49,908 nucleotides of DNA from Deltaproteobacteria bacterium (GTDB taxonomy: Bacteria > Desulfobacterota > Syntrophia > Syntrophales > Smithellaceae), in contig JAKLES010000002.1 in the NCBI GenBank assembly GCA_022711575.1, forward strand, positions 1-49,908, written 5' to 3'. Of the stretch, positions 1,643 through 27,999 are shown piece after piece. The position numbers and the translations under genes were made by a program. Each line of letters opens with the position of its first letter. Positions within the stretch are counted from its first letter, which is position 1. The notes beneath the pieces were generated by a model. That model made no database searches. It was not told the DNA's origin and saw only the letters and a program-made list of their open reading frames with translations.

Positions 1643-2905
1643 TTAAATCTCAGGACGTGCCCGACGATAGAAGATAGGAATGCAATTCCGAGGTTGCCCA
1701 GGAAGACACCCACAAGTAACGCTTGCAATAAGTTGAAGCAAACGTCCATACTTGTTAGTATCCACATGAGTAACATTCCCACCAGAAGTTGTAACCCTAA
1801 GAACTTGGTCAGTAATATAAACCTCACCGTTCCAATTCATAGAATAGAACTTCTTTTGATCAATTGCTTTAGAGCTAAACTCCTTCGGAGGAGCACCAAC
1901 AGCAATAGACTTGTAAGCATCTGCTCCCATAAGCCAAGCAACACCAAATGGAGCTTTAGTAAGAGATGCGTAGTCAGGATTAACAATCACCTGTCGTCCA
2001 CGTCCCTCAGCAGTTTCATCAAGAACAATCTGAGGATTGTAGATTGTCCCATCTGCTCCAAAACGAATTGCACCTTTTTCAAGTTTGCAAGTAATCTTGG
2101 ACCACAAACTACCTCGGAAACCATTAAACAACAGATCGAGATTTACAGACTTCAGATCATGTGCTGTTTGGTCATAGCGGAACATGCTATAAGCTTCGCT
2201 ATCGCACAGCAACACAAATTTGCCTTTAAGTCCCTCGTTATCAGAGGGCATGTTATTAACACCCTCGAAAGGAGGAGCATCAAGGTCTTCCTCAAGAGCA
2301 ATCTGCGCACGATTAATAACATTCAAAGTCAAGTTTGTCTTAACCTGTGCAGCAATATTAGCCCTCCAAGCAGCATTCTTAACATCAGTTTGACCCTCAT
2401 CAGAATATGGAGCATTAGTCAAGTCCGCAACTCCAGCAATTTGCACCAGAGGAGAACGTTGATAAGCTACTGTGCGGATAAACTGATTGTTGAAGATTTG
2501 AATCTGTCGAGTAATATCAGAACTCTTATACTTAACTTGACCCTGCCAAAAATCTTGGAACGAGGGAACAAAAGTGATAAGACGGGTTTCAAAATCTTGA
2601 GCTTTGATCCTAGCAGTCTGCAAAGCTTCATCAACTTCATAGACGTTCTTCGTAGGCTCAACATCAACATTGTTGGGATATACAAAAGTGTTAGCAATCG
2701 GAGATGGCTCCGGTCGCGCACTTTTCATAATATTACCCATGTTTGCTTTCCAGGGGATAGTCCCGAAAAGCTGATCCCAAATATTCCACCTGGGAGCAAC
2801 TTTTACCTCATTTTTAACAAGGTAAAAAGGCAACTTTGCAAACTTGTCTTTATCTTCTGTCTCGGCAAGAGCGAAAGTTGCAGGTTGTTCATACCAACTA
2901 GGCAT
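1643..2905 (-). CDS. Putative major capsid protein
   Basis: 420-aa ORF in the canonical order terminase, portal, scaffold, capsid. It has its own -24/-12 promoter candidate upstream (3023-3042), a hairpin downstream (1081-1116), and an AAAGG ribosome-binding-like site. The call rests on synteny and size only. Confidence 0.6.
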   Translation of the reverse strand: MPSWYEQPATFALAETEDKDKFAKLPFYLVKNEVKVAPRWNIWDQLFGTIPWKANMGNIMKSARPEPSPIANTFVYPNNVDVEPTKNVYEVDEALQTARIKAQDFETRLITFVPSFQDFWQGQVKYKSSDITRQIQIFNNQFIRTVAYQRSPLVQIAGVADLTNAPYSDEGQTDVKNAAWRANIAAQVKTNLTLNVINRAQIALEEDLDAPPFEGVNNMPSDNEGLKGKFVLLCDSEAYSMFRYDQTAHDLKSVNLDLLFNGFRGSLWSKITCKLEKGAIRFGADGTIYNPQIVLDETAEGRGRQVIVNPDYASLTKAPFGVAWLMGADAYKSIAVGAPPKEFSSKAIDQKKFYSMNWNGEVYITDQVLRVTTSGGNVTHVDTNKYGRLLQLIASVTCGCLPGQPRNCIPIFYRRARPEI

Positions 2906-3022: not shown

Positions 3023-3042
3023 AGAAGCAAGAACCATGCCAA
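3023..3042 (-). promoter_or_regulatory. Sigma-54 type (-24/-12) promoter candidate upstream of capsid gene
   Basis: The minus strand reads TTGGCATGGTTCTTGCTTCT. GG is at 3040-3039 and GC at 3028-3027, with exactly 10 nt between them, matching TGGCAC-N5-TTGCW. It is intergenic and about 120 nt upstream of the capsid ATG. Confidence 0.65.
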
Positions 3043-7895: not shown

Positions 7896-8147
7896 TTATT
7901 CGTTTCTAGCGATTGCAGCATTTGCCCACATAATAGCTTCTTCAAGTTTTGTAAGGGCTAAAGATTGTTCTCGGCTCTGTTTAGAACATTTAGCAATCAA
8001 AAGAGCCAGTTGTTTTGCAGACTCTCTTAAAACTGCATATCTTTCTATTTGTGAGTTATTAGGAGGATGGTAAGTAAAATCATTTATGATTCTTTCATAC
8101 ACATCCATCGGTATTTGATATTCAGTAGCAGTCATAATATTAGACAA
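7896..8147 (-). CDS. Hypothetical protein
   Basis: 83-aa ORF, end-to-end with its neighbours in the late operon. Confidence 0.5.
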   Translation of the reverse strand: MSNIMTATEYQIPMDVYERIINDFTYHPPNNSQIERYAVLRESAKQLALLIAKCSKQSREQSLALTKLEEAIMWANAAIARNE

Positions 8148-8898: not shown

Positions 8899-9348
8899 TT
8901 ATCCTATAATCTCAGCCTCTACTATAGAAGGACCATGTCCCTCGGAGGCTTTAGCTAATTGGTTTTCTGCAAGTTTCTTTGTCTGCATTATCTCTAATGC
9001 AAAATTCCTCAACAACCCAAGTGCTTCTTTTGCTGCATGGTTTTTGACCCTCGCATTATTTCTACCAGAAGCCTCCTCAATTACAAATTGTGCAGCTTTA
9101 AGTCTTACTCCATCATTTTGGGCATTGTGCATAATCTCCGTAATAACCCCAAGTGCAGCTTCCTCGTGGGTTTTAGAGCTTTCTTCGGAGGAAAACTTCT
9201 TAGCCACATTTGCGAGGGAGAGTTTTCTGCGAAACTTCTCTGTCACCACACAAACATTCGTGATATCCAGCTCAAGAGCCTCTGCAATCTCTTGATCTGT
9301 CATCCCGCTTCTCACAAAGCTCTCTAGTTGTTTCTCAAACGAACTCAT
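8899..9348 (-). CDS. Helix-turn-helix protein, possible small terminase subunit
   Basis: 149 aa and the first gene of the late operon. It contains GMTDQEIAEALELDITNVCVVTEKFRRKL, a sigma-70 region 4 / LuxR-like HTH pattern. The small-terminase call is positional only. Confidence 0.4.
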   Translation of the reverse strand: MSSFEKQLESFVRSGMTDQEIAEALELDITNVCVVTEKFRRKLSLANVAKKFSSEESSKTHEEAALGVITEIMHNAQNDGVRLKAAQFVIEEASGRNNARVKNHAAKEALGLLRNFALEIMQTKKLAENQLAKASEGHGPSIVEAEIIG

Positions 9349-9433: not shown

Positions 9434-9453
9434 CTTAAGCATTTTCCATGCCA
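9434..9453 (-). promoter_or_regulatory. Sigma-54 type (-24/-12) promoter candidate for the late (virion) operon
   Basis: The minus strand reads TGGCATGGAAAATGCTTAAG. GG is at 9452-9451 and GC at 9440-9439, 10 nt apart. It is about 90 nt upstream of the first late ORF. It matches the site at 17565-17582 at 17 consecutive positions. Confidence 0.7.
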
Positions 9454-10086
9454 TCGAGTTTCTCCTTACTTCCTACTAAGCTTTCTAATTTTACTTTAAA
9501 CTACATAAAATATCTAGTTTTTAAAATTTGAATTTTATGAGAGAGAGTCATGTGTTATTCGCGTATGCGATCGCGGCCCTCTCCCCACCAGCAAGTTCAG
9601 CTCCCAGGATAATTGCTATCTACACTTCGTGGTCTAGGATCTAGCTCATATCTAGTTGTTGCAAGTCTGGGAAAGCAACTAGCAGGAAGTCTGAACTTCA
9701 AAACTTCATGGATTAGGCTTCCTGGAAGATCTGGGATTTTGCTCTCTGGGGATTGAGAGTAGTTTAATCTTAAGTAAGATACTAATATTAGTAAGGATAT
9801 AATGATTCAATAGGTGTGATCGGCAATTTCTTCCTAGCGTTTAAACTCTCTAGGATTGATTATAAGAAGCCGTGTAGCCTTCTTGCTATAACCATATTAG
9901 AAATTACTTCCGCTTTTTGTAAACTACTAACTATCAGGAACAACGGCAAAAAAAATTCTTAAATAAATACAGGCTTCCAAGCTCCTATAATTGATCCTAG
10001 AGCTTTTCTTTAACATTAAAGCTTTAGTTAGAGTTTTGTTTTAGGGGTAAAAAAGTGACTTGAGCCCTAGGCGTGTGAGTAAAATC

Positions 10087-10140
10087 AAAAAAAAATTTTT
10101 TTTAGAGATTTTTTTGTTTTGTTTATTTTTTTGTTTTTAT
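10087..10140. other. A/T tract (A9T8 palindrome followed by T-runs), possible DNA-unwinding element
   Basis: The sequence is caaaaaaaaattttttttagagatttttttgttttgtttatttttttgtttttatttg. It lies in the divergent non-coding region next to the iteron-like repeats. Confidence 0.4.
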
Positions 10141-10187
10141 TTGTATAAGATAATGTCATATGTTTTTTTGGAGCCTAAAGCAAAAAA

Positions 10188-10334
10188 GTAAATAAAGAAA
10201 AAGCAAGAGAAAACTTCAGATCCCCCCCTCGTAAGGATTGTGGGGAAGTAAAGAAAAAGCAAGGAAAAACTTTAGAAAACCTAGAAAGCAAGCTGCAAAG
10301 CAAGCATCCCCCTCGTGGAGATGATGGGGAAGTA
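10188..10334. repeat. Two imperfect tandem iteron-like repeats, each with a CCCC..GGGG hairpin core; AAGCAAG occurs 4 times
   Basis: Unit 1 (10188-10250) is gtaaataaagaaaaagcaagagaaaacttcagatccccccctcgtaaggattgtggggaagta. Unit 2 (10248-10334) has the same ends with a ~24-nt insert. AAGCAAG recurs near 10201, 10258, 10287 and 10300. Confidence 0.6.
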
Positions 10335-10380
10335 GAGTTTGGTGGAGCTATAGCTTAAGGGATTGTAAAAAATTTAGGGT

Positions 10381-10401
10381 GCGAAGCATAAAGTATGCCA
10401 A
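10381..10401 (-). promoter_or_regulatory. Sigma-54 type (-24/-12) promoter candidate firing leftward into the non-coding region
   Basis: The minus strand reads TTGGCATACTTTATGCTTCGC. GG is at 10399-10398 and GC at 10387-10386, 10 nt apart. It lies back to back with the rightward sigma-70-like promoter at 10452. Confidence 0.6.
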
Positions 10402-10451
10402 GAGAGAGGCAAAAAGTAAAATAAAGTTTAGAATATTTCACTGTTAGGGGC

Positions 10452-10479
10452 TTGACAAGAGCGGAAATGGGGTTAAAAT
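10452..10479 (+). promoter_or_regulatory. Sigma-70-like early promoter candidate
   Basis: TTGACA (10452-10457), a 16-nt spacer, then TAAAAT (10474-10479). It lies upstream of the first plus-strand genes. Confidence 0.5.
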
Positions 10480-10493
10480 AAAAGGAAAAAACC

Positions 10494-10556
10494 ATGAAAA
10501 AAATAGTATCGACAATTGAGCTACCCTGCATCGAAGGGGACATATTTAGATTCTAA
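10494..10556 (+). CDS. 20-codon leader ORF (MKKIVSTIELPCIEGDIFRF)
   Basis: The ATG is about 15 nt after the -10 box, with AAAGGA 8 nt upstream. The stop codon TAA (10554-10556) directly abuts the 5' arm of the terminator hairpin. Confidence 0.3.
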   Translation: MKKIVSTIELPCIEGDIFRF

Positions 10557-10587
10557 TCCGGAGGATTTTAATCCACCGGATTTTTTT
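10557..10587 (+). terminator. Intrinsic terminator / attenuator upstream of the first early gene
   Basis: TCCGGAGGATT (10557-10567) pairs with AATCCACCGGA (10570-10580) with one mismatch. A T7 run follows (10581-10587). Confidence 0.6.
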
Positions 10588-10612
10588 GTTCACAAATAAC
10601 CTATAAAAACCT

Positions 10613-10941: not shown

Positions 10942-11349
10942 ATGAAAGACAAAATCACAACCAAGGTTAACACCGTAGAGATTACACTCAGTCTCCTAAC
11001 AAAAAAAGGAGACACTGAGACTTACTATGGTATTAGTGATGAAACGCTCAAAGCAATTAGCTTTGATGACTTGAAGCAAGTCATTGGCAACGAAACAATT
11101 GTCAAAGATTGGCTCCAACAAACTCTTAACTTGCGCCTGCAGAAAGCGCAAAATGAGTATAAGCTCAGTCCTGGTGACGAAGAGTTCATCAAGTTCGCAG
11201 AGAATGGCTGGAGGAAAAATCGCAAAGATGAACTCAAGAGTACAATTGACGAGTTCAACAAAAAGATCATGGCCGCGCTCCGGGAAGGTAAAAAAGATGT
11301 AGCACAAGAATTAATGGATGAAATGCAAAAGTTTGTATTAAATCAATAA
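10942..11349 (+). CDS. Early hypothetical protein
   Basis: 135-aa ORF with the ataaaaacctATG start context. The antisense ORFs overlapping it look like shadows. Confidence 0.55.
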   Translation: MKDKITTKVNTVEITLSLLTKKGDTETYYGISDETLKAISFDDLKQVIGNETIVKDWLQQTLNLRLQKAQNEYKLSPGDEEFIKFAENGWRKNRKDELKSTIDEFNKKIMAALREGKKDVAQELMDEMQKFVLNQ

Positions 11350-11377
11350 TTCAAACCTTGAAAGTCAAATTCTAGCT

Positions 11378-11590
11378 ATGAAAAAATACTTAGCCTTATT
11401 GCTTGTGAAAGCACATTCACAAGAGGATTTATCGCAACTTAAAGAAATTGCCAAAGATATTTTAGTGATGGAGGCAATTAAGTTGAAACATGAACAATTC
11501 CTATGTGATAAGGAATTGCGAGATCTTAATAGCATCTCAGGCTATAATTATGCAGTTCGTGAAGAAGTAGCTAAATGGGCAAAATTATGA
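11378..11590 (+). CDS. Early hypothetical protein
   Basis: 70-aa ORF overlapping the next gene by 16 nt. Confidence 0.45.
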   Translation: MKKYLALLLVKAHSQEDLSQLKEIAKDILVMEAIKLKHEQFLCDKELRDLNSISGYNYAVREEVAKWAKL

Positions 11591-11946
11591 ATCTTCAAGA
11601 TTTATTAATCTCAGAAGTATCTAGCTTAATTGAAAGCTGGCTTCGATTCCACCCGCAAAGGATAGTGGCTTCTGAAGTAGCCTCTGAGCTTAAAAAACTC
11701 CATCCAGAAGATTGGAGCTTTATCCCAGTTGAAGGTGGCAATCTAGTCAAAGTATGCTACGTCTCTACCGCAGAACGTTGGGAGAAAGCATATCAACGCG
11801 AACAAGCCGCAATCAAAGCGGCCAATGAACAACGAAGTAAAGCACTTGCAGAGGAGGAGGAAATCCTTAGCAAGATAGGAGGAAAACTTGACAAGAATCA
11901 AGTTGAAAAGTTTATGAGACTTAAAAGGATGATTGACAACCTATAA
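11575..11946 (+). CDS. Early hypothetical protein
   Basis: 123-aa ORF followed by a strong terminator. Confidence 0.5.
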   Translation: MGKIMNLQDLLISEVSSLIESWLRFHPQRIVASEVASELKKLHPEDWSFIPVEGGNLVKVCYVSTAERWEKAYQREQAAIKAANEQRSKALAEEEEILSKIGGKLDKNQVEKFMRLKRMIDNL

Positions 11947-11970
11947 GTAGCGTCAATTAAATTACCACAA

Positions 11971-12008
11971 AACACCCCAAGGTTAAAATCTTGGGGTGTT
12001 TTTGTTTT
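11971..12008 (+). terminator. Intrinsic terminator ending the first early transcription unit
   Basis: AACACCCCAAG (11971-11981) pairs with CTTGGGGTGTT (11990-12000) across an 8-nt loop. TTTGTTTT follows. Confidence 0.7.
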
Positions 12009-12023
12009 CCAAGGAAAAACCAT

Positions 12024-14201
12024 ATGACAATAGAAGAAATAAAAATCCACAATTATATTGTGGATAAATTACGAACCGACGATAAATGGCTTAAGCGCGC
12101 TTTGGTGCGATTGTATGAGTGTCAAGAAGCCGATGAACAAAGCCAACAAACAACAAAACATCTTAACGGCAGGGGATTTGATTATGCTGATAGTGATTTT
12201 TGCTCATCCGTAGCAGAATACATCCAAGCCAAAGGAGATTTTTCTCCCTCGGGTAAACAACAAGTAGCTTTGCGAAAGTGCTTGCCGAAATATTGGAAAC
12301 AAGTCTGGGATTTCATTCCCTCCGCGAAGCAACAAGAGATACTTGCAAGCTTGTCCCCTACGAGCGTCAGCGAGGCTGGAATGTCAAATGGTCAAAGGGA
12401 AAAAACTTTAACGTTACAAAACACCCCGCCAAGCGATTCAAATGATGCTCCCCTTGTGTCTATACCCCCCGCTTTGCAAGATGCACTGGCATTAGTGCCC
12501 GAAAGCACCTGCCAGCAATCTAGTGACATTGTAGTTGTAGATAGTTTACCGGAAGTAAAACAAGTAAATGATGTAATTCTTGCACAAGATACTTACTCTC
12601 TAGAAAAGATAATCGAAGCTTGCGAAAAAGCCGAAACAAGCTCGCAGCTTAAGTTTCTCCAGCCTTTCCAAAAAGAGGAATGTATTGCATTAGTTAATTC
12701 TATTGCTAATCATAATGGTGAACAGCTTGTTGCAGGAACAGGAACAGGAAAAACTTATATCTATGCTTTAGCATTTAAAGCACTAGAATTGCTAGGCTTC
12801 TTTGATGGAACTAAGACCGGGTGGATGGTAGTAACTTTTAAAACCGCAGTAAAACAAACTCAAAGAGTAATTAAAAAAGCCTGTCTTAAAACTTCAGGTT
12901 ATGTCATGGGCTATGATGCCCTTAGATCAACTATTGGAGAAGTATTTCTTAGCTGGCATACGGAAATAAAAAATGGCCAGCCTAGTTTTTATACTGTTTG
13001 GGACAAGAATTTTGCTCCTCGGGTTTGTTTATTTGATGAAAATCAAGCACTCAAGAATAATGGAACCTTGCGAGAAGATGTCTTACTAGGCTATATTAAC
13101 CTTGCTTCTGCTAATCCTGAGGAAAAGTTTATTCCAGTATTTACCAGTGCCACACCTTGGACAAGAGTAAGTGAAATGAAGCTAAGTGTAATTGCGCTTA
13201 GACCTTACATTGAATATCCTGATCCATATTGGTATGGAAAGAAAATCAAGTCTAGGATTACAGAAAATACTTGGAATAGATTCGCAAAGTCCATATGTCG
13301 CAATCCAGAAGATTACAATGCTGCGGCATTAAAACGTGCAATAGACACATTAAATGAATACAATCCGGGATTAATTCGTGTAGTAAAAGGTGTGAGATTT
13401 CCTCATAGGGGATTCATTAAACACGTGCTAATGCAATTCAAAACTCAGGAGGAAGCAAAGTTTTATCAACAAGCCTATGAGGATTATCTTAGGGAATTAG
13501 CAAAAATAAACAAAGCTTCCCCCGGCTGGTTTGCAGCAAAACTTGTTGCAATGCTAAAGTTTAGGATGCGTGCAGAGGAAATTAAAGCCCCATATCTTGC
13601 AGAACAGGCAATCCAACATATCAAGGAAGGCAAACAAGTAATTGTTGGATCTAACTTTATTAAAACTGTTGAAATTGTTTCCTCTCTAGTAGAAGCCGCA
13701 GGCTACAAAGTTTCACTTATTGTTGGTGGTCAAAGTGCAGAAAAGAGACAATCAAATGTGGATAGATTCCAGGAAGGCAAAGCTGAATGCGCTTGTGTAG
13801 CTTTGCGCGCCGGCGGTGTGGCTCTAAGCCTACACCACGACCGTGATACATCACGCCCTCGAATTGTTCTTGTGCCGCCAACCTGGAGTGCAATAGAAAT
13901 GGTACAATTCCTTGGCCGTGCTGTTCGTATAGACTCCCTTACAGATACCATACAATATATTTGTTGGTTCGCAGGAACAATTGAAGAACATGTTTCCTCG
14001 AAAGTAGCAACAAAGATGAGTGCAATTAAAGGTTATGTTGGCAAAAAAGAAACATGGAGCAAAGCTTATGAAAGCTCAAACGAAGTTGATGAGACTGAGA
14101 TAAGTGAAAGACTTGTTACAGATGCAGAAGAAACTGATGAAGATGGAAACATCAAAGAAATAAATGAAGAAGAAGTAGAGATGATATTGGGAGAAGATTA
14201 A
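12024..14201 (+). CDS. SNF2 / DEAD-like superfamily-2 helicase
   Basis: Motif I is LVAGTGTGKTYIY and motif II is CLFDENQALKN. The C-terminal helicase domain shows VIVGSNF..LIVGGQS..RFQEGKAECACVALRAGGVALSLH. The track start at 11991 lies inside the terminator hairpin, so the start is moved to the ATG at 12024 (context aaaaaccatATG). Confidence 0.7.
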   Translation: MTIEEIKIHNYIVDKLRTDDKWLKRALVRLYECQEADEQSQQTTKHLNGRGFDYADSDFCSSVAEYIQAKGDFSPSGKQQVALRKCLPKYWKQVWDFIPSAKQQEILASLSPTSVSEAGMSNGQREKTLTLQNTPPSDSNDAPLVSIPPALQDALALVPESTCQQSSDIVVVDSLPEVKQVNDVILAQDTYSLEKIIEACEKAETSSQLKFLQPFQKEECIALVNSIANHNGEQLVAGTGTGKTYIYALAFKALELLGFFDGTKTGWMVVTFKTAVKQTQRVIKKACLKTSGYVMGYDALRSTIGEVFLSWHTEIKNGQPSFYTVWDKNFAPRVCLFDENQALKNNGTLREDVLLGYINLASANPEEKFIPVFTSATPWTRVSEMKLSVIALRPYIEYPDPYWYGKKIKSRITENTWNRFAKSICRNPEDYNAAALKRAIDTLNEYNPGLIRVVKGVRFPHRGFIKHVLMQFKTQEEAKFYQQAYEDYLRELAKINKASPGWFAAKLVAMLKFRMRAEEIKAPYLAEQAIQHIKEGKQVIVGSNFIKTVEIVSSLVEAAGYKVSLIVGGQSAEKRQSNVDRFQEGKAECACVALRAGGVALSLHHDRDTSRPRIVLVPPTWSAIEMVQFLGRAVRIDSLTDTIQYICWFAGTIEEHVSSKVATKMSAIKGYVGKKETWSKAYESSNEVDETEISERLVTDAEETDEDGNIKEINEEEVEMILGED

Positions 14202-14206
14202 AAATT

Positions 14207-14374
14207 ATGAAACCTAAAAATATGGTAATTACATATAAAATTATAAACCTTCTAATAAATGAAGGCTGTAGTATAAATGATGTTTATGAGATTTTCTTTC
14301 TGCTAAAGAAGTCTTATGATAAAATAACTTCTGACATGTTAAACTTAAAAGAAACAACAAATATTAATAATTAA
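14207..14374 (+). CDS. Small hypothetical protein (55 aa, below the track cutoff)
   Basis: Read by eye: MKPKNMVITYKIINLLINEGCSINDVYEIFFLLKKSYDKITSDMLNLKETTNINN. It fills the gap between the helicase and the next ORF. Confidence 0.3.
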   Translation: MKPKNMVITYKIINLLINEGCSINDVYEIFFLLKKSYDKITSDMLNLKETTNINN

Positions 14375-14379
14375 AGACT

Positions 14380-14811
14380 ATGAAAACTTATTATAAACTT
14401 GTTTATAAATATCTGTATGAATATAGAAGTTGTAGTGTTTACATGCAACCATATTCTATTTCATATCCTCCTAATAGTATTATAAAAGCACCAGAAAGCG
14501 GACCAATATTTATATTTGATTCTAAAGAACATTTAGATGATTATGCAAATTATTATTGTAAAAGGACGAATTTATACTATTATAAAGTTCACGCACTAGG
14601 TGTGAGAAAACCATTAAGCATTTGTGATTATGTTCTCATTACTTATAAACTTACTTATAAAGAGTATTCTCCAGACCTTTTTTGGAGACAAATGAAAGAG
14701 GTAAATACTGATCTTATAATTAGTAATAATAATATGTATGTTATGCATGCTCCAACAGGAACATTAGTAGCAAGAGTTATTAAAACCCTCGGAGAAGCAA
14801 TCAAATTATGA
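14380..14811 (+). CDS. Hypothetical protein, apparent distant paralogue of 15916-16293
   Basis: 143 aa. It shares ordered landmarks with the 125-aa ORF: MKxYK.V, Y[RK]SC, G.[IL]F[IV]F, FW and AP.GT. Confidence 0.5.
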   Translation: MKTYYKLVYKYLYEYRSCSVYMQPYSISYPPNSIIKAPESGPIFIFDSKEHLDDYANYYCKRTNLYYYKVHALGVRKPLSICDYVLITYKLTYKEYSPDLFWRQMKEVNTDLIISNNNMYVMHAPTGTLVARVIKTLGEAIKL

Positions 14812-15545
14812 ACCCAAAACTAGCAAGACGCTTACGGGACGAAGGTGCTCTTGGAATAGCAAGAAAGTTCCTACAAGAGTCTAAGTTAGACTCCTTTATT
14901 GGATCTTCTCCAGCAGTAGCTAGGCTTAAAGAACGTGTAGAGAAACTGAGAGGAAGAAAAGAAAGTATCTTAATCCTCGGAGAAAGTGGAACAGGCAAAG
15001 AACTTATTGCACGTGCTTTGCACGAAGATAGTTTTGGTCCTTTTGTAGGTGTTAATCTTTCAGCTTTACCAGAAACCCTAGCTGAGAGTTTGTTATTTGG
15101 TTCAGTAAAGGGATCATTTACAGGAAGTAATGAGAACAAAATTGGTATGTTCCAGCAAGCAGGAAAAGGAACATTGTTTCTTGATGAACTTGCAGAGATA
15201 GAGGTGGGACTGCAAGTAAAATTACTTCGAGTATTACAAGAAAGGGAATACTACCCAGTAGGTTCAACAATATTAGAGAAGTTAGAATGTAGAATAATCT
15301 CCGCAACAAACAACACAACATTGAAAGGATTAAGACTAGACTTAATAGAAAGACTAGGAACATTTAGAATACATATTCCTCCGCTAAGAGAAAGGCTAGA
15401 AGATATAAAAGAAATAGCAGAAAGTTTCTTAGAAGAAGAACTCCCAGAGGAACTTATTGACAAATTAAAAAATTATAATTGGCCCGGAAACGTCCGTGAA
15501 TTACAGAACAAGTTATTAAATTGGAAAACATTTGGAGAGTTATGA
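14808..15545 (+). CDS. Sigma-54-interacting AAA+ activator (bacterial enhancer-binding protein central domain only)
   Basis: Full-length motif match to the NtrC/PspF central domain. Motifs seen: ILILGESGTGKELIARALH (Walker A), LLFGSVKGSFTGS (GAFTGA loop variant), GTLFLDELAEI (Walker B), LLRVLQEREYYPVGS, CRIISATN, IHIPPLRERLEDI and NWPGNVRELQN. It has no receiver or sensor domain and no C-terminal HTH. Confidence 0.85.
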   Translation: MNPKLARRLRDEGALGIARKFLQESKLDSFIGSSPAVARLKERVEKLRGRKESILILGESGTGKELIARALHEDSFGPFVGVNLSALPETLAESLLFGSVKGSFTGSNENKIGMFQQAGKGTLFLDELAEIEVGLQVKLLRVLQEREYYPVGSTILEKLECRIISATNNTTLKGLRLDLIERLGTFRIHIPPLRERLEDIKEIAESFLEEELPEELIDKLKNYNWPGNVRELQNKLLNWKTFGEL

Positions 15546-15874
15546 ATAAAAAACAGTATAAAATTTATTGTGATAAAGTAGAAAAAGAAACTAAAGGTCT
15601 AATTGTTTCAACTGGAGCTTGTCCCGGATGTAATGAATGCAACTTAGATAAAAATGCTACTGATGAAGAAATAGATATTGCTAATGAACCAAGTTTCTCT
15701 TGGTATTGTTGTAATATTTGTAACACAAGACTTGGAGGAGATAGGTATTATGCTCATGGTATAAATAAAAATAATAAGATTATTCATTTTAATATTTGTT
15801 TAGACTGTTTGATGTATTTAAATTATGGTCAACTTGATGATATGACAATGTTAGATATGGAAAAGGAAGATTAG
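15521..15874 (+). CDS. Cys-rich (zinc-finger-like) small protein
   Basis: 117 aa with CPGCNEC, CCNICNTRLGG and FNICLDC clusters. Confidence 0.5.
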   Translation: MENIWRVMNKKQYKIYCDKVEKETKGLIVSTGACPGCNECNLDKNATDEEIDIANEPSFSWYCCNICNTRLGGDRYYAHGINKNNKIIHFNICLDCLMYLNYGQLDDMTMLDMEKED

Positions 15875-15915
15875 TAATTAAATTACACTTATAAAATAAA
15901 TATACCTTAGAAACT

Positions 15916-16293
15916 ATGAAAGCTTATAAGATTGTAAAAGTTGATTCTGATGGAACATATAAAAGTTGTTTAGGTTTTACTGACCTAAAGTGTTGTGTAG
16001 AATATAAAGTTGGTGAGCCAGTATATCCAAAGATTGGAAAACTTTTTGTGTTTAAGAAGAAAGCAGATGCAATTAGGTTTAGTAAAAGTTTCTGGAATCT
16101 TAATAAAAGCTTTAAACTATTTTCTTGCCTAGCAACGGAAGCAAAGAAACAAACTGAGATATCGTATGTTGTAAGTGATAATTGTGTAAAAAGTTTTTGG
16201 GATTTTACACTGCCAGATTATGATATAGATGAAGCCCCGAAAGGGACTTATTGTTGCTCAAGTGTAACATTAGTGAAAGAAAGAAAACTATGA
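15916..16293 (+). CDS. Hypothetical protein, apparent distant paralogue of 14380-14811
   Basis: 125 aa beginning MKAYKIVKVDSDGTYKSC. It shows the same ordered landmarks as the 143-aa ORF. Confidence 0.5.
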   Translation: MKAYKIVKVDSDGTYKSCLGFTDLKCCVEYKVGEPVYPKIGKLFVFKKKADAIRFSKSFWNLNKSFKLFSCLATEAKKQTEISYVVSDNCVKSFWDFTLPDYDIDEAPKGTYCCSSVTLVKERKL

Positions 16294-17555
16294 AATACTT
16301 CGTAATCACAACAAATGTAGAGTTGCACTTAAAAGAAATCATAACCCTAGGACTAACAACCAAGAAAGATACAGATAAGATTGGACACAAAGGAACAGGT
16401 TTTAAGTTCACACTAGCTTATTTACATAGGCTAGGAAGTTGTTTGCATACTAGGGATAACTTACTTGATGAAAGTTATACTTCTTTTAGTAAAGAAGAAA
16501 CAATTAAAGGACAAATACATAGTTTCTTATACTTAATATCCTCAAAAGGAGTAGAAACTCCATTAAATATAACCACACATCTTGGAGAAGATACTTGGAA
16601 TAAGCCTTGGTTTATTCTCAGGGAACTTATCCAAAACGCACTAGATGAAGGAGGAAAGTATTTTATTTCCGATAACTTCTATGAAGGAGAGGAAAGAACA
16701 ATAGTTCAAATACCACTAACCTCTGAACTTGAGAAAGCCTACGAGGAAATAGATAACTGGTTTACTACAAAACTTGTTGGAGTTTACAAAGATGGTCCTC
16801 CTGGAATTTTCTATAAAGGTTTTAGAGTAACAGAAAAGGAGGGATTTTCTATCCAGTGGGTGATGGATATAAATAGAGATTATCTTTCTGAAGATAGAGT
16901 CCTGAAGACTGGATTATATAATTTGTCTTTCTACAAGTTTGGAAACTCCAAAGAACTAGCAGAGATATTATTAGCTAATTCTTCTAATGAATATTCTGAT
17001 GATCTTAAAGCTGCCATAGATCAAGTGCAATATCATTCCACATTTCAAGAAAACTTAGCATCTTTATTAGATGAAAATTGTGTTTATGTTAATCAAGTTT
17101 CAGAAACTTTATTACATGACATAAAAGCAAAAGGAAAAAAGCCTACAATTGCAAATAGTTCTTTTGTTAATATGTTAGAAAGATTTAATCTATATAATAA
17201 ATTTACTATTGCCTCTTTAGATTTATCAAAATCTTGGGAAGAAGTAGAACTTAGTAAAGAACAAAAACATGTGTTTGCAAAAGCTTTAAGAATAACGTCA
17301 AAAATCCGTCCAACAGATTGTAAGGTTTTAGTAGCTAAGAAACTTAATGAGAATGAAAACTGGTCTGGACTTGCAGATTTAAAATCAAATCAAATAGTCA
17401 TCCGCAATAGTATTGTTGGTAATCTTGAGTTGTTAGTAAAAGTTTTAGTTCACGAATATATTCATATTAGATCACGAGCAAGTGATTGTTCAGAAGACTA
17501 TGAGGAAGAAGCGGTTAGGATTATTAGCAAGTTACTATTAGGTTGTGACCTATAG
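16290..17555 (+). CDS. Large accessory protein with a GHKL-like N-box motif and a C-terminal HExxH motif
   Basis: RELIQNALDEGG resembles the ExxxNxxD N-box of GHKL/MORC/Hsp90-type ATPases. IGHKGTGFKF is a Gly-rich loop, but it precedes the N-box, which is atypical order. VLVHEYIHIRS is a zincin-like HExxH. The start is taken at the ATG at 16290, which forms an ATGA overlap with the previous stop. Confidence 0.45.
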   Translation: MKYFVITTNVELHLKEIITLGLTTKKDTDKIGHKGTGFKFTLAYLHRLGSCLHTRDNLLDESYTSFSKEETIKGQIHSFLYLISSKGVETPLNITTHLGEDTWNKPWFILRELIQNALDEGGKYFISDNFYEGEERTIVQIPLTSELEKAYEEIDNWFTTKLVGVYKDGPPGIFYKGFRVTEKEGFSIQWVMDINRDYLSEDRVLKTGLYNLSFYKFGNSKELAEILLANSSNEYSDDLKAAIDQVQYHSTFQENLASLLDENCVYVNQVSETLLHDIKAKGKKPTIANSSFVNMLERFNLYNKFTIASLDLSKSWEEVELSKEQKHVFAKALRITSKIRPTDCKVLVAKKLNENENWSGLADLKSNQIVIRNSIVGNLELLVKVLVHEYIHIRSRASDCSEDYEEEAVRIISKLLLGCDL

Positions 17556-17564
17556 CAAAAGTCC

Positions 17565-17582
17565 CTGGCATGGAAAATGCTT
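17565..17582 (+). promoter_or_regulatory. Sigma-54 type (-24/-12) promoter candidate for the 17649-18101 gene
   Basis: The sequence is CTGGCATGGAAAATGCTT. GG is at 17567-17568 and GC at 17579-17580, 10 nt apart. It is intergenic and about 65 nt upstream of the ATG. Confidence 0.7.
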
Positions 17583-17648
17583 AGTAGTCTTAGTCGTTAG
17601 ACAAAATCCCCTCGGGGACAACCAACAACAATTAAACAAAAAGCACTT

Positions 17649-18101
17649 ATGAGTAATGATATTAAAGTTTTGAGTGAAAAAGACGGAATCCAAGTTCAAG
17701 AGATTGAATTTGCAAAGGGAGAATATGCTGGCTACAAGTTTGCACTTCCTGTTGTCATGACCCTCGCCGCGGCTGTTGCTGCTTATGGCGAGGAAGCAGT
17801 TCTTAATAGCTTTAATGCCAACGCATCTACTGCGATCAGGGCCAAAGTTAAGAGCAAGTTAGTGGAATCCAAAGATAATCTTCCTGCCAAAGACAACTTA
17901 CTTTACAGTATTGAAGATGCTTTCTCTTGGAAACCAGGCGAACGTGAAATGTCTGTTGCAGCTATCCTCAAGTTGATGAAAAATACTATGAAGGAAGCAG
18001 ATGAAGCTAAGAAGGCTGGCAACAAAGAGATATATCTTGATCTTAAGAACAGGGCTCAAGAACTCTTTATGAAGGCTTCTGAGAAAATGGGACTTGAGTA
18101 G
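17649..18101 (+). CDS. Hypothetical protein in a monocistronic sigma-54-promoter / terminator unit
   Basis: 150-aa ORF, Ala/Lys-rich and helical-looking. It is bracketed by the promoter candidate (17565-17582) and a 12-bp-stem terminator (18121-18162). Confidence 0.6.
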   Translation: MSNDIKVLSEKDGIQVQEIEFAKGEYAGYKFALPVVMTLAAAVAAYGEEAVLNSFNANASTAIRAKVKSKLVESKDNLPAKDNLLYSIEDAFSWKPGEREMSVAAILKLMKNTMKEADEAKKAGNKEIYLDLKNRAQELFMKASEKMGLE

Positions 18102-18120
18102 TAGTTGGTCATTGTGGGTT

Positions 18121-18162
18121 CTAGGAGTAGGGTTTTGTGATTTCCCTACTCCTAGTTTTTTT
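18121..18162 (+). terminator. Strong intrinsic terminator
   Basis: CTAGGAGTAGGG (18121-18132) pairs with CCCTACTCCTAG (18144-18155) across an 11-nt loop. A T7 run follows. Confidence 0.8.
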
Positions 18163-18203
18163 CTTCTAGTATTTTTATTTATCCTCCTAACAAAAACTTC
18201 TCT

Positions 18204-18725
18204 ATGGGACTTCTTGATGCAGTCAGACCTGTGGATAAACAAGCTTTAGAGAAAGACCTCTATAGCTTAAATAGAATAAGACAGTTTAAACCATTGCTTG
18301 AGAAGATCCTCGCAGATGGAGTTGATTGTTTTATTTCTTCTAAGATTGCAGGTTACAAACCAAGGTCATTGCATGTATATCTAAATGCAGCACTTAAAGA
18401 TTTGTCCACATTTTCCTCCGAGGAACAAAGTCAAAAGTGGCAACTATTTAGAAAGCTTGTAGAATTTAGACCTGCGGAGGATGGAGTATTTGTAATATTT
18501 AAACGTCCTATCTTAATGGACACAGAACTTAGTCCAACTCCTAAAGAACCTGACTATTCTTGGAGAGAAGACTTTACTAAGTTTGTAGAAGATGGGAAGC
18601 AAGGAGAGATTAGGGAATTTACTGGGGTTTTAAATGATGGAGATAAGAAGTTTGTTACAGGAGTTGTAAATGGAATCCAGGGAGAAGTAGAGTTTGGACC
18701 TTTTTCTTTTAAAGTAATTCTATGA
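18204..18725 (+). CDS. Hypothetical protein
   Basis: 173-aa ORF whose stop overlaps the next start (ATGA). Confidence 0.55.
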   Translation: MGLLDAVRPVDKQALEKDLYSLNRIRQFKPLLEKILADGVDCFISSKIAGYKPRSLHVYLNAALKDLSTFSSEEQSQKWQLFRKLVEFRPAEDGVFVIFKRPILMDTELSPTPKEPDYSWREDFTKFVEDGKQGEIREFTGVLNDGDKKFVTGVVNGIQGEVEFGPFSFKVIL

Positions 18726-18916
18726 CAATAGAACAACTTCTAGGACTTCCCTCCGAAGAACTTGCAAAGTTAACAGATGAGGAAATACTTAAAGTATTTG
18801 AACCATGTTTAAAGTTTACAATGCCAAAAGAAGTCAAACATCATGAAACCAAACAGTCAAAAGAAACCCTCCGAGATCAACTACTAGCACTTAAAGCAAT
18901 ACTTGATAATGAATAA
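18722..18916 (+). CDS. Hypothetical protein
   Basis: 64-aa ORF, translationally coupled on both sides. Confidence 0.45.
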   Translation: MTIEQLLGLPSEELAKLTDEEILKVFEPCLKFTMPKEVKHHETKQSKETLRDQLLALKAILDNE

Positions 18917-24344: not shown

Positions 24345-24548
24345 ATGGGAAAAACTTCTGCAAAATTTGGCCTCTGTGCTTGTGGTAATTCAACATCTTT
24401 GCGCAAGCGTCATGAGTGGATTTGTGAGAGATGTGACAAGTTAGAATCCAGACATTCAGATCATGGAGTAGAGGTAGTTAGGAGAATTAAACCTGATCTT
24501 AATGATTTTAGAGTAACACTTACAAACTTCCTCTCTTGTGCGAAATAA
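24345..24548 (+). CDS. Small zinc-ribbon protein
   Basis: 67 aa, with CACGNS .. CERCDK. Confidence 0.45.
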   Translation: MGKTSAKFGLCACGNSTSLRKRHEWICERCDKLESRHSDHGVEVVRRIKPDLNDFRVTLTNFLSCAK

Positions 24549-25983
24549 ACCCACAACCTCCTACTCAGGACTTACTATCCTCCTAGATAGACCCTCGCGG
24601 TTTGATAGGCAATATCTAATTTCTGCCTATGCAGGAAAAATCTTTGAAAGATTTATCTCTCCCTTAGACCGGAGGTCTATTGATATTCAAACTCTTGATA
24701 CTTTTCGAGAGTTCTATCCAGAAACTAAAGTTGTAATGTTGCTAGGAAAAGACTCCCTCGCGTTGTTTAAACAAGGAGTAACTTTACAACAACAAAGAGG
24801 CTCACCTTTTAAGATAGGTTCAAAAACTTTCCTGGCATCTTTCCCTCCTCAAGATTGTATTGATATAAAAAACTACGAAGATAGCTATTATGAAAATGAA
24901 ATCGAAGAAGACTGCACAAAAGACAGTGATGAAAAATCCACAAAAGGAGCAACCCCAAGAAGTGAATATGCTTTTTGGTTTGAGCGAGACTGCAAGAAAG
25001 CTTTGCGATACTTGCGAGAGGATCCAAAAATTATTGAGTTCAAAAAAGTTATCAACCCTCCAATTACAGACATTACACGAGCTTTGCTGGGACTACAAGG
25101 ATCTGAGTTGTTTCTTGATATCGAAACTGCGGACGACTTCAGACTCACTTGTATTGGACTTGGTTTCGACAATGTTATCTACACAATCCCAATCTCCAGA
25201 TATAGCCCACTTGAAATTACTCTTACAAGCAACCTCCAAGATACTGCAAACTTCCTCCGAGCACTTGCCGTTGCAATGGTCAGAAATTTAGTAGTAGTTC
25301 ACAATGCAATGTTTGATCTTTGGGTGCTTGCAAAATATTATAAAATCCCAGGAGGTAAGAATAACTTTGACACAATGATAGCACATCATAGGTGTTATCC
25401 AGGTGTTAGAAAATCCCTCGGGCATTGCTTGTCATTATATACTGACCAGCCATATCATAAAAACGAGGGTGTGTTTAATCCAAAAACCCCCGCACAAGAA
25501 AGGCAACTATGGGAGTATAATGCAAAAGACATTGAATCATTAATGATTTTAAAACCAGAAATCCTAAAACGCGCTAAGATACTTGGTGCTGAGAGGTCTA
25601 TTGAAATTGCTAATAGAATGATCAGACCTTATCTTACTATGACGCTCACTGGTATAGAACTTGCTGAGAACAAACTAGAAAGTGAGATAGCAAGTTTGCA
25701 AAAAGAGGATGTGCAAACTTTGAGGCTAATTAAATTGCTTGCTGGAAGCGAATTAAATCCTAATTCTCCTAAACAAATGAGAGAGTATTTGTTTGATGGA
25801 CTTGGGTATAAAGCGTTTAAGTTTTCGGAAAAAACTAAAGAAGCCTCGACAGGGATAGAAACTCTATTAAGATTACGTATTAAACATCCAGAAAACCATG
25901 TCTTAGGTTTGTGTTTAAAACGCCGAGGGATCGCAAAGAAACTTAGTATGATAGAAAGTTTGTATGCCAAAGAAACTACATAA
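24538..25983 (+). CDS. Family-A DNA polymerase, N-terminal fragment (unassigned N-domain + 3'-5' exonuclease + thumb start)
   Basis: Exo I is LFLDIETAD, Exo II is VVHNAMFDLWVL and Exo III is EYNAKDIESL. The C-terminal RRGIAKKLSMIESLY matches the K-L-x-S-T-Y region preceding the fingers. The ORF stops before the O-helix and palm motifs. The first ~110 aa loosely resemble a degenerate UDG-like fold (low confidence). Confidence 0.75.
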   Translation: MRNKPTTSYSGLTILLDRPSRFDRQYLISAYAGKIFERFISPLDRRSIDIQTLDTFREFYPETKVVMLLGKDSLALFKQGVTLQQQRGSPFKIGSKTFLASFPPQDCIDIKNYEDSYYENEIEEDCTKDSDEKSTKGATPRSEYAFWFERDCKKALRYLREDPKIIEFKKVINPPITDITRALLGLQGSELFLDIETADDFRLTCIGLGFDNVIYTIPISRYSPLEITLTSNLQDTANFLRALAVAMVRNLVVVHNAMFDLWVLAKYYKIPGGKNNFDTMIAHHRCYPGVRKSLGHCLSLYTDQPYHKNEGVFNPKTPAQERQLWEYNAKDIESLMILKPEILKRAKILGAERSIEIANRMIRPYLTMTLTGIELAENKLESEIASLQKEDVQTLRLIKLLAGSELNPNSPKQMREYLFDGLGYKAFKFSEKTKEASTGIETLLRLRIKHPENHVLGLCLKRRGIAKKLSMIESLYAKETT

Positions 25984-26089: not shown

Positions 26090-26301
26090 CCTCCGAGGAG
26101 TTTAATAAAGAAATAACAACGCTTATGGAAAAAGCTACAAAAGACCTTGGTCCTCATAAAGTAGCTAGTTGTTTGTCACAACACTTAGGAAATTACTTAT
26201 TTGCAATTAATAATCATTATGAAAACCTTAGTAAAGATCCTTCCAATAATACTGCTAACTCTAACTCTAACAGCACAAACTTCAGTGGTAAGAGTAGTTA
26301 A
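26086..26301 (+). CDS. Small protein with a Asn/Ser-rich C-terminus
   Basis: 71-aa ORF. The N-terminal 44 aa look coherent. The last ~27 aa overlap, in another frame, the signal-peptide coding region of the next gene. Confidence 0.4.
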   Translation: MTSEEFNKEITTLMEKATKDLGPHKVASCLSQHLGNYLFAINNHYENLSKDPSNNTANSNSNSTNFSGKSS

Positions 26302-26548
26302 ACTTATTTGGGATGCAAACCCTCCAGAGGAGAACATTCTTTACTATTCTGTAAAGTGGTCTTCAACATCTGGTGGACCTTACCTAACAGTTACAAATGT
26401 AACAACTACAAACGCAACAGTTATTTTAAAAGGAGGTAGGAATTTCTTCATTGTAACTGCTGTAAATAACTTTGCAGAAAGTGATCCCTCCGAGGAAGTA
26501 TATAGACACATTGCCCCAGGGCGAGTAAAGAACATAAAAGCACAATGA
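26219..26548 (+). CDS. Secreted fibronectin-type-III-like domain protein
   Basis: The signal peptide is MKTLVKILPIILLTLTLTAQT (start moved to the internal Met at 26219). KLIWDANPPEENILYYSVKWS..YLTVTNVTTTNATV..FFIVTAVNNFAESDPSEEV has an FN3-like strand pattern. Confidence 0.55.
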   Translation: MKTLVKILPIILLTLTLTAQTSVVRVVKLIWDANPPEENILYYSVKWSSTSGGPYLTVTNVTTTNATVILKGGRNFFIVTAVNNFAESDPSEEVYRHIAPGRVKNIKAQ

Positions 26549-27999
26549 AAATCCTCCTCATCAATCCATTCTATACTTCTAACTGTTCTACTAGATGGTA
26601 TCCTCCTGAGCCTCTTGGCTTATTATATCTCCGAGAATCTATAAGAGCTATTTATGGATCTAAAGTAACTGTCAAAATCCTCGATGCTCAGACAGAAGGT
26701 GGAGAAGAAATAAAAAGGACACCTAGTGGATATAGAAATGGAATGATTGATGGGGAGATTTTAGATTTCCTAGATAGCTATAAACCAGACATTGTTGGAA
26801 TTACCAACAACTACACATTTGGTGTAAAAGATGCAGTTGAAATTGCAAAACTTGTAAAACATTTTGGTAATCCTGTTGTTATCCTCGGAGGAGCTAATGC
26901 CACAATGGACCATGAGAGGCTTATAAAACTTCCCTGGTTTGATTATGTTGCTAGAGGCGAGGGAGAAGATTTGTTTGTTGAGTTTGTAAAAGGTTTTATT
27001 GATGGAGGAGTTGAAGATATTCTTGGGCTTACTACAAAAAACAAAATAAATCCTCCTAGAACATGTTTAGTTGATCTAAGTAAACTTCCAATCCCACGTA
27101 GAGATGAAATCCCTTTTGATTTGTATTCTAAATATTCAAAATATCCAATGTGCCCAAAGCAACGTCCAACTGCAACAATATCTTCTAGTAGAGGTTGTCC
27201 TTTTAGATGCACCTTCTGTTCTACTCAAGCTGTTTGGGGGAATAATTGGCGAGGGATGAGTGTAGAGAGGATGTTAAAAGAAGTAAGTTACTTACACAGC
27301 TTAAGAGTTAGAGAAGTTTATTTCTATGATGATCAACTTCTCAGAGATAAACTTAGAATTGAAGAATTTTGCCTCAAGTCTATTGAGTATTTTTCTGACA
27401 TGACATACTCTACCCCGGGAACTTCTCCTATGTTGATGTCTGAGGAACTTCTTGAACTTATGTCCCTCGCAGGATTTTATCGCTTGTGCTTTAGTGTTGA
27501 CGTAGGGACTGTGAAAGTTGCAAAACTAGTAAAGAAACCTGTGAAGCTTGAAAAAGTCCGAGGACTTGTAAAGAAAGCAAACACTCTTGGTATGTGGACT
27601 TGGGGAACATTTGTGATGGGATTCCCTCAGGAAACAAAAGAGGACATAAAGGAAATGATAACCTATGCTTCCTCGCTGGGATTTGATTTTGTAAACTTTT
27701 TTATGTTACAACTACATAAAGGGAGTGAGATATATAACAACCTAATAAGAAGCGGAGTTATTAAAGATGACTTGCATGGGTCAAATAGTATGGATTATCC
27801 TCTCTGTCCCTCGGAGCATTTATCCCAACAAGAGCTAATTGCTTTGCATAAAGAGGCTGAGAAAACATTTTATAAACAAGTAGCAAGGAGAGTTTTTAGC
27901 TCAAGTTTTATAAAAGAACTATGGCCAAAAATCAACACGTGGACAAAATTTAAATATGGAGTAAAACTATTATGGAATCTAATAAAGATGAAAATATAA
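26545..27999 (+). CDS. Radical SAM enzyme with N-terminal B12-binding-like domain (class B type)
   Basis: The CxxxCxxC cluster is SSSRGCPFRCTFCS. The N-terminal Rossmann-like region is KILLINPF..PPEPLGLLYL..DIVGITNNYT..VVILGGANAT, as in cobalamin-dependent radical SAM proteins. Length is 484 aa. Confidence 0.75.
   Translation: MKILLINPFYTSNCSTRWYPPEPLGLLYLRESIRAIYGSKVTVKILDAQTEGGEEIKRTPSGYRNGMIDGEILDFLDSYKPDIVGITNNYTFGVKDAVEIAKLVKHFGNPVVILGGANATMDHERLIKLPWFDYVARGEGEDLFVEFVKGFIDGGVEDILGLTTKNKINPPRTCLVDLSKLPIPRRDEIPFDLYSKYSKYPMCPKQRPTATISSSRGCPFRCTFCSTQAVWGNNWRGMSVERMLKEVSYLHSLRVREVYFYDDQLLRDKLRIEEFCLKSIEYFSDMTYSTPGTSPMLMSEELLELMSLAGFYRLCFSVDVGTVKVAKLVKKPVKLEKVRGLVKKANTLGMWTWGTFVMGFPQETKEDIKEMITYASSLGFDFVNFFMLQLHKGSEIYNNLIRSGVIKDDLHGSNSMDYPLCPSEHLSQQELIALHKEAEKTFYKQVARRVFSSSFIKELWPKINTWTKFKYGVKLLWNLIKMKI

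Follow-up and report, generated by a model that had tools for sequence, protein, structure and literature searches.

A putative sigma-54 activator reduced to its AAA+ core, paired with promoter sites in a lineage of uncultivated tailed phages

We analyzed a 49,908-nucleotide (nt) stretch of DNA (contig JAKLES010000002.1; hereafter the window), which is the almost complete, circularly permuted genome of an uncultivated tailed phage of ~50 kb. The gene of interest lies at positions 14808-15545. On all of the sequence and structural criteria open to testing, its 245-residue product is a bona fide member of the enhancer-binding protein (EBP) family and, to judge from its sequence, it consists of the AAA+ core only, having neither a regulatory nor a DNA-binding domain. 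The RNA polymerase holoenzyme that contains sigma-54 (E-sigma54) forms a closed complex at -24/-12 promoters, which is opened only with ATP hydrolysis by a hexameric EBP, and it is the L1 loop of the EBP (GAFTGA) that contacts region I of sigma-54 (PMC7175178). The AAA+-only protein DctD250 is constitutive, promiscuous and enhancer-free, and activates the whole sigma-54 regulon of Salmonella (PMC3844500), while the ATPase domain of CtcC alone induces the sigma-54 regulon of Chlamydia (PMC7482065).

We consider it likely, with a probability of roughly three in four, that the phage protein is a natural analogue of DctD250, that is, an enhancer-independent, core-only activator that switches host E-sigma54 on at promoters in the phage genome. 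The pairing of the predicted activator with predicted sigma-54-type promoters is conserved in a phage lineage whose members have diverged deeply and which is found in metagenomes from digesters, freshwater, soil and probably the sea. Somewhat less firmly, we favor the broader reading that this widespread and uncultivated lineage of tailed phages, with genomes of ~45-56 kb, runs its middle and late transcription on host sigma-54 by means of its own enhancer-independent, domain-minimal AAA+ activator. Within that reading, some members apparently place most of their transcription on the sigma-54 holoenzyme.

The activator protein and its gene

The frame at 14808-15545 (+) is open in the window, and all of the motifs that the original prediction had quoted in assigning its product to the central domain of NtrC/PspF-type EBPs are present in the translation. 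In a Pfam search, Sigma54_activat (PF00158) matched residues 31-188 with an E-value of 1.6e-46 and a score of 158.5 bits against a cut-off of 20.2, with profile positions 2-167 of 168 covered, and AAA_lid_14 matched residues 194-235. Walker A (GESGTGKE) occupies residues 58-65 (G58-E65), Walker B (LFLDE) residues 123-127 with D126-E127, sensor I (ATN) residues 166-168 with N168, and sensor II (GNVRE) residues 227-231 with R230; all four, together with R176/R182 of the R-finger region, fall in invariant columns of the alignment. Sequence searches of the PDB returned the central domains of NifA, NtrC, FleQ, NtrC1, ZraR, LuxO, FlrC and PspF (E-values of 1e-46 to 1e-36), in alignments spanning residues ~28 to ~236. 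NCBIfam models of PrdR, NorR, NifA, NtrC, RtcR and PspF aligned in their central parts only, and their scores were always well under the full-length cut-offs.

Structure prediction, which had been proposed as a check, likewise gave the AAA+ core of an EBP. The AlphaFold2 model, built from a 120-sequence alignment, had a mean predicted local distance difference test (pLDDT) score of 89, with residues 1-30 alone of low confidence. Foldseek superposed it on the AAA+ domains of FleQ, NtrC1, FlrC, ZraR and PspF with template-modeling (TM) scores of ~0.8 and root-mean-square deviations (rmsd) of 1.7-3 Å, the best superposition being that on the central domain of FleQ (TM 0.82, rmsd 1.7 Å).

The claims that the protein has no receiver or other sensor domain, with ~30 residues before the core, and no Fis-type helix-turn-helix (HTH) were borne out. 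Only 30 residues precede the AAA+ core, and receiver, GAF, PAS, V4R and HTH_8 models of Pfam found no match to the protein even at E<=1. At the other end, the protein stops 11 residues after GNVRELQN, and these residues align with the final lid helix of ordinary activators; a tail of this length is therefore physically too short for a DNA-binding domain. The nearest cellular homologues are receiver-plus-AAA+ proteins of ~390 residues that have no HTH. The (W/Y)xVLG sequence of the C-terminal tail was considered as a special interaction motif and was rejected, because its counterpart in alignments with cellular EBPs is the ordinary 'RAVVL' with which the lid helix ends.

The L1 loop, at residues 102-107, reads GSFTGS, and F104 and T105 are kept. 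The original prediction had emphasized the replacement of the canonical GAFTGA by GSFTGS; a variant with the F-T core is indeed present, but the departure is only mild, since 39 of the 119 nearest cellular homologues have GSFTGA (8 have GAYTGA and one has GAFSGA). We therefore read GSFTGS as a mild variant of GAFTGA rather than as loss of the motif. Relatives of the phage protein (see below) have GSFTGA, GAFTGA, GAFTGS, GSYTGS, GSYTGA, GSYTGC or GSYSGA, always with an aromatic residue followed by T or S.

The start codon of the activator gene overlaps the stop codon of a 143-residue ORF (open reading frame), and its stop codon overlaps the start of a Cys-rich ORF, each in an ATGA (Table 1), which indicates that the activator is translationally coupled to both of its flanking ORFs. 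The Cys-rich ORF (15542-15874) matches no family and shows no conservation in relatives; therefore, it is not a conserved DNA-binding partner. Sixteen contigs, mostly of 20-50 kb and drawn from at least five independent data sets, carry the identical 245-residue protein in the same context, and two variants of ~97% identity retain the frame and all of the motifs. The ATGA overlaps, the 16 contigs and the variants that keep the frame together argue that the activator gene is not a broken fragment.

Promoter sites in the window and its relatives

The pattern TGGCAY-N6-TGCTT occurs exactly four times in the window, versus 0.06 expected from dinucleotide shuffles. All four sites are intergenic and co-oriented with the genes downstream of them (Table 1), and under a position weight matrix made from the lineage they score 20-24 bits, the next best site in the window scoring 11. 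The 17-mers at 9437-9453 and 17566-17582 are identical. Site 17566 starts 11 nt past the stop codon with which the activator operon ends, and the ORF that follows it, 17649-18101, opens a replication module of exonuclease, AAA_24, polA and primase genes. The three sites cited in the original prediction as -24/-12 promoters before late genes were thus real, and a fourth was added to them, but the one at 17566 precedes replication genes rather than late genes. No 8-10-mer common to the 250 nt upstream of the four promoters was found; there is therefore no sign of an enhancer, as activation without enhancers predicts. A small RNA made from the site at 10384-10400 was also considered, and the folding energy of the RNA downstream of that site was no better than that of shuffles (z 0.44).

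An alignment-based scan of IMG/VR yielded 235 viral contigs with a relative of the EBP, of which the best 80 were examined; single-protein scans of IMG/VR with the activator, the helicase and a 604-residue protein gave nothing. Among those 80, 23 share the gene order of the window (helicase, activator, exonuclease, AAA_24, polA, primase) at protein identities of 25-46%, and two of the 23 also encode two proteins of the structural arm. The activator is core-only in all 23: the longest possible ORFs have 257-336 residues and end at most 35 residues past the core. In contrast, the other virus-database EBPs that were measured (n=56) have C-terminal extensions of at least 41 residues in every case and of at least 78 residues, which is room for an HTH, in 54; many of these 56 also have N-terminal regulatory domains.

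Several of the other IMG/VR contigs (L081, L024, L021, L074, L028, L030, L065, L069 and L086) carry PspF-like EBPs in which a short N-terminus is followed by the AAA+ core and then by a C-terminal extension of ~85-135 residues. In addition, phrog_7998, a family with no assigned function and a profile length of 339, matches the window activator with an E-value of 3e-41. Such proteins may represent additional EBPs of phages or prophages that are built differently. Viral or prophage DNA with EBP genes is thus not without precedent, and we found none of these genes that had previously been linked to phage promoters.

The sigma-54-type motif accompanies the activator through the lineage. In 294 kb of non-redundant related loci, TGGCAY-N6-TGC was counted 40 times versus 4.6 +/- 2.1 in shuffles, a ~9-fold enrichment, whereas unrelated EBP-bearing loci of the virus database had 22 motifs versus 18.3 in shuffles. 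The spacing is specific, with 58 sites for N6 compared with 2-13 at the other spacings from N2 to N10, and 29 of 44 sites lie in the 13% of the sequence that is outside long ORFs. Positions that were not part of the search pattern are also biased, with T before TGG in 62% of sites, G after TGGCAY in 75% and T after TGC in 88%, and these flanking bases match the sigma-54 consensus YTGGCACG-N4-TTGCW. Most relatives have one site 12-250 nt past the stop codon of the activator gene. Unrelated virus-database contigs with activators showed neither the core-only context nor the enrichment of the motif.

Three remoter relatives (L092, L093 and L094) were reached by way of the capsid protein, at 38-50% identity. 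In each of them one site lies in the gap that immediately precedes the capsid gene, another heads the structural arm, and at least one more is directed into the helicase arm. Sites equivalent to that at 9437-9453 were found in these three loci and in L013 and L014. Inside the structural arm of L093 (JGI 3300005330) there is also a stand-alone Response_reg gene of 134 residues at 15974-16378 (+), a receiver that is intriguing because the activators of the lineage have no receiver domain.

In a neighbor-joining tree, for which there is no bootstrap support, a split divides all 21 distinct phage activators from the 119 nearest cellular homologues. The raw identity of the window activator is slightly higher to cellular proteins than to phage activators. 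A single acquisition of the activator by the phage lineage is likely but unproven.

The phage genome around the activator gene

The window is organized in two divergent arms. The rightward arm (~10450 to 30459) is the early and replication arm, and it carries small ORFs, an SNF2/DEAD-like helicase, the activator, a PD-(D/E)XK exonuclease, an AAA_24 ATPase, a family-A DNA polymerase that is split in two and a DUF3987 primase-helicase. The leftward genes, from 9348 to 406 and from 49586 to 30401, have almost no family matches. In another assembly (ERZ761563 NODE_521; L008 16113-16771) the two ends of the window are joined by a segment of 659 nt, which is absent between positions 49908 and 1 of the window, and a gene of 317 residues is cut by this boundary. 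Because the ends are joined, the leftward genes form one continuous structural arm of ~29 kb that starts at ~9450. The rightward arm is headed by the region's best match of sigma-70 type (10452-10479), a consensus match only, which is proposed as a candidate early promoter, and its position would fit sigma-70-driven early expression.

Table 1. Positions of the genes and sequence elements discussed in the text
Feature	Locus	Position	Strand	Remark
Core-only sigma-54 activator gene	Window	14808-15545	+	EBP AAA+ domain
SNF2/DEAD-like helicase	Window	12024-14201	+	Opens the operon; synteny with the activator holds in all relatives examined
143-residue ORF	Window	14380-14811	+	Stop overlaps activator start codon (ATGA); without family match or conservation in relatives
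Cys-rich 110-residue ORF	Window	15542-15874	+	Several CxxC pairs; start overlaps activator stop codon (ATGA)
Sigma-70-type match, TTGACA-16-TAAAAT	Window	10452-10479	+	11/12 match to consensus
Intrinsic-terminator-like hairpin, strong	Window	11969-12002	+	15-bp stem followed by a T-run; separates small early genes from helicase-activator operon
Sigma-54-type site, TGGCATGGAAAATGCTT	Window	17566-17582	+	69 nt upstream of ORF 17649-18101
Sigma-54-type site, TGGCATGGAAAATGCTT	Window	9437-9453	-	Head of leftward structural arm, 91 nt upstream of ORF 8899-9348
Sigma-54-type site, TGGCATGGTTCTTGCTT	Window	3025-3041	-	122 nt upstream of major capsid gene
Sigma-54-type site, TGGCATACTTTATGCTT	Window	10384-10400	-	Inside 1.26-kb non-coding region, leftward
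Major capsid protein, HK97 fold, 420 residues	Window	1643-2905	-	AlphaFold2, 40-sequence alignment, pLDDT 75
Sigma-54-type site upstream of helicase-activator arm	L092	1968	-	
Sigma-54-type sites upstream of helicase-activator arm	L093	2914, 1766	-	
Sigma-54-type site upstream of helicase-activator arm	L094	1593	-	
Sigma-54-type sites upstream of helicase-activator arm	L029	186, 2418, 4832	+	
Sigma-54-type sites upstream of helicase-activator arm	L014	5015, 6409	+	

Terminase, portal and capsid genes were not identified by PHROGs, Pfam or PDB sequence searches of the window, and the capsid protein was recognized solely through structure prediction, the top Foldseek matches of its model being the capsid proteins of phages B2, DEV, N4 and T7 (E ~1e-10). 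Homologues of this protein (P0124-P0242) form at least 125 clusters at 31-61% identity from many metagenomes, typically on contigs of 44-56 kb, and these clusters represent a large unnamed phage group. None of the homologues among the deposits searched came from cultured phages or species-representative genomes: there was no capsid match among 50,697 deposited phage records (INPHARED) and no capsid relative in 185,579 GTDB species genomes. The same INPHARED records held no DNA match to positions 11000-18900. A scan of genomes with the helicase found one 2.4-kb contig in a metagenome-assembled genome of Terracidiphilus, at 29% identity, which is uninformative as to the host. Searches of the window detected no phage RNA polymerase or sigma factor (Pfam, PHROGs), no rpoN-type domain, no tRNA genes and no Rfam families.

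Several other features of the genome were noted. The two ORFs of the family-A DNA polymerase are 2.3 kb apart, within the series 24538-25983, 26201-26548, 26545-27999 and 28253-29248 (+), and between them lie a small fn3-like ORF and a 484-residue B12-binding radical SAM enzyme (Radical_SAM, E 1e-20; B12-binding, E 1e-11); L013 and L035 encode the polymerase in one ORF, and several other relatives in two ORFs next to each other. In the structural arm, a 79-residue protein encoded at 7896-8135 (-) matches the Acb2/Tad1 hairpin domain (E 3e-21), a domain known from anti-CBASS and anti-Thoeris nucleotide sponges. The same arm has two giant ORFs with almost no matches, 30401-34960 (-) of 1519 residues and 40566-44840 (-) of 1424 residues, the latter with weak head-decoration-like and tail-like segments only. 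Between the divergent arms there is a 1.26-kb region without called genes (9454-10612), with long A/T runs and two pairs of ~30-nt direct repeats (10190-10220/10246-10276 and 10224-10253/10308-10337). The sigma-54-type site at 10384-10400 points into this region, which could be a replication origin or a regulatory region.

Proposed mechanism, alternatives and known systems

We hypothesize that the product of ORF 14808-15545 is a functional EBP ATPase, cut down to its AAA+ core and made from the rightward arm. As it has no regulatory domain, it would be expected to form active hexamers once its concentration sufficed, and as it has no DNA-binding domain, it would be expected to act from solution on any closed complex of E-sigma54. 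The phage would supply such complexes at its four -24/-12 promoters, which would be silent without the activator. Synthesis from the rightward arm would lead to accumulation and oligomerization of the protein, and then to opening of E-sigma54 complexes at the phage promoters, whereby the replication genes, the structural arm and additional expression of the capsid gene would be switched on. The build-up of activator would thus take the phage from early genes, driven by sigma-70, into middle and late expression. The original prediction had described a self-contained early-to-late switch; the coupling of activator and promoters at its heart is supported by their co-occurrence in the lineage, but the switch would be an early-to-middle one as well as a late one. 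We infer the ATPase activity, the contact with sigma-54, the action from solution, the timing and the presence of rpoN in the host. That the activator would be unregulated is suggested by the domains that it is missing, and control in trans, like that of PspA on PspF, is a possibility.

Several observations weigh against this scheme. Activation by DctD250 from solution is ~10-fold weaker than enhancer-directed activation (PMC3844500). The final residue of the L1 loop motif is S and not A; an S at this place is found in none of the 119 nearest cellular homologues and, within our data set, is confined to the phage lineage. In the window, the terminator-like hairpin at 11969-12002 separates the best sigma-70-type promoter from the helicase-activator operon, no convincing promoter for that operon was found in the region, and transcription would have to be assumed to read through the hairpin. 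Relatives also have sigma-54-type sites upstream of the helicase-activator arm (Table 1), so a simple early-to-late cascade is insufficient there. The circuit in those relatives probably includes positive feedback or autoregulation, in which case the first activator could come from weak sigma-70 promoters, from host EBPs acting from solution or from activator packaged in the virion.

Among other explanations, we consider it unlikely that the activator mainly fires the sigma-54 regulon of the host (e.g., nitrogen assimilation, stress and envelope genes), with the phage sites secondary or incidental. An activator that consists of the core only is inherently promiscuous and would fire every sigma-54 promoter of the host (PMC3844500), yet the phage sites are conserved in position (at the heads of the arms, at the capsid gene and after the activator) where proteins are only 25-46% identical, and incidental sites would not be expected to show a ~9-fold enrichment in this lineage only. 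Such a take-over of the host and control of phage genes are not mutually exclusive. At slightly longer odds, the protein could be a co-activator like FleT, inactive alone and working in mixed hexamers with a DNA-binding EBP of the host or with a phage partner. FleT is a precedent for a core-only EBP (PMC7175178), and the activator gene is translationally coupled to two unassigned ORFs, one of them Cys-rich. These flanking ORFs are conserved in no relative, however, and the four promoters have no common upstream sequence by which a partner could recognize them. Moreover, most relatives have a promoter directly 3' of the activator gene, and site 17566 starts 11 nt past a coding region.

We regard as improbable that something else reads the motif and that the AAA+ protein has another role, whether in sigma-70-dependent activation, like NtrC of Rhodobacter capsulatus, in remodeling or in replication. 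The variability of the L1 loop in the lineage (GSFTGS, GSYTGA, GSYSGA, GSYTGC) might suggest this, but its F/Y-T/S core is present in every member, and GSFTGA, GAYTGA and GAFSGA are found in cellular EBPs. The DNA motif, for its part, agrees with the sigma-54 consensus both in the fixed spacing and in the flanking bases T, G and T, and the window has no detected RNA polymerase or sigma factor of the phage that might read it instead. Least credible of all, in our view, is an artefact in which a truncated fragment of a bacterial EBP lies on a bacterial or chimeric contig. Many of the 'viral' records that match the activator are indeed bacterial contamination or prophage flanks with full-length EBPs. 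Against this stand the recurrence of the protein in its context on 16 contigs with in-frame variants, the joining of the window ends in another assembly, a genome that encodes an HK97 capsid protein, polA, primase, exonuclease and an Acb2/Tad1-like protein, and the fact that the protein stops exactly at the end of the lid domain, as it does in 23 of 23 relatives. Our preferred reading thus remains the enhancer-independent activator that acts on E-sigma54 at phage promoters.

Phages are known to take over transcription with an RNA polymerase or sigma factor of their own, with antiterminators, or with activators or inhibitors that act on sigma-70. If our reading is true, an ATPase "key" for the sigma-54 holoenzyme of the host would be a further strategy and a new class of phage transcription program, and the proteins would be the first viral members of the EBP family. 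Because sigma-54 promoters are essentially silent without an activator, late genes would be held tightly off, and the switch would then be set by the concentration of one small protein. Enhancer-independent activation would be the native mode of a whole regulatory system. A prediction that follows is that rpoN is an essential host factor, and hence a resistance locus, for a broad group of phages. The compact, orthogonal pair of activator and promoter might also be of use in synthetic biology. What would be new is a known activator family in a new setting, as a phage factor with temporal control of host RNA polymerase.

The original prediction had not recognized this as an established phage strategy, and a full-text literature search agreed, finding no published report of a phage-encoded EBP or of a phage gene program based on sigma-54. 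Matches to the activator in deposited phage records (INPHARED) were bacterial contamination, prophage flanks or unannotated contigs at <43% identity, and among the viral structures of BFVD there were only generic AAA+ proteins (MoxR, CobS, Lon, RFC) at <=20% identity.

The logic of the proposed switch is shared with known phage regulators such as T4 gp55/gp33/gp45, SPO1 gp28, lambda Q, Mu C and P2 Ogr, each of which provides a new sigma factor, an antiterminator or an activator of sigma-70: an early product redirects host RNA polymerase to middle or late promoters. Unlike those regulators, the phage protein would be an ATPase, and what it would unlock is the sigma-54 holoenzyme that the host itself provides. 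FleT of Cereibacter (Rhodobacter) sphaeroides is, like the phage protein, a natural AAA+-core-only EBP, and Poggio et al. in 2005 reportedly found that it works together with FleQ. FleT is chromosomal and part of a flagellar hierarchy, whereas the protein described here is encoded by a phage, lacks a conserved partner gene and has the promoters that it is paired with in the same phage genome. A review from 2020 gave FleT as the only known EBP that lacks both regulatory and DNA-binding domains (PMC7175178), and the phage proteins would be natural additions to that class.

Among EBPs of other architectures, CtcC of Chlamydia (PMC7482065) and FlgR of Helicobacter/Campylobacter are, like the phage protein, natural EBPs without a DNA-binding domain; they retain a phosphorylation-controlled receiver, where the phage protein has ~30 poorly predicted N-terminal residues instead. 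PspF and HrpR/HrpS resemble the phage protein in having no N-terminal sensor domain and a core that is superposable, but they differ from it in retaining an HTH at the C-terminus, in binding to enhancers and in their control in trans by PspA or HrpV. Closest in extent are DctD250 (250 residues) and the ATPase domain of CtcC (245 residues, 142-386), with nearly the same boundaries as the 245-residue phage protein. AAA+-only fragments of this kind, namely DctD250, PspF 1-275, the central domain of NtrC1 and the CtcC ATPase domain, are constitutive and promiscuous and need no enhancer to activate sigma-54 promoters (PMC3844500; PMC7482065). They are, however, laboratory truncations, whereas the phage protein is the product of a natural gene under selection in a virus lineage.

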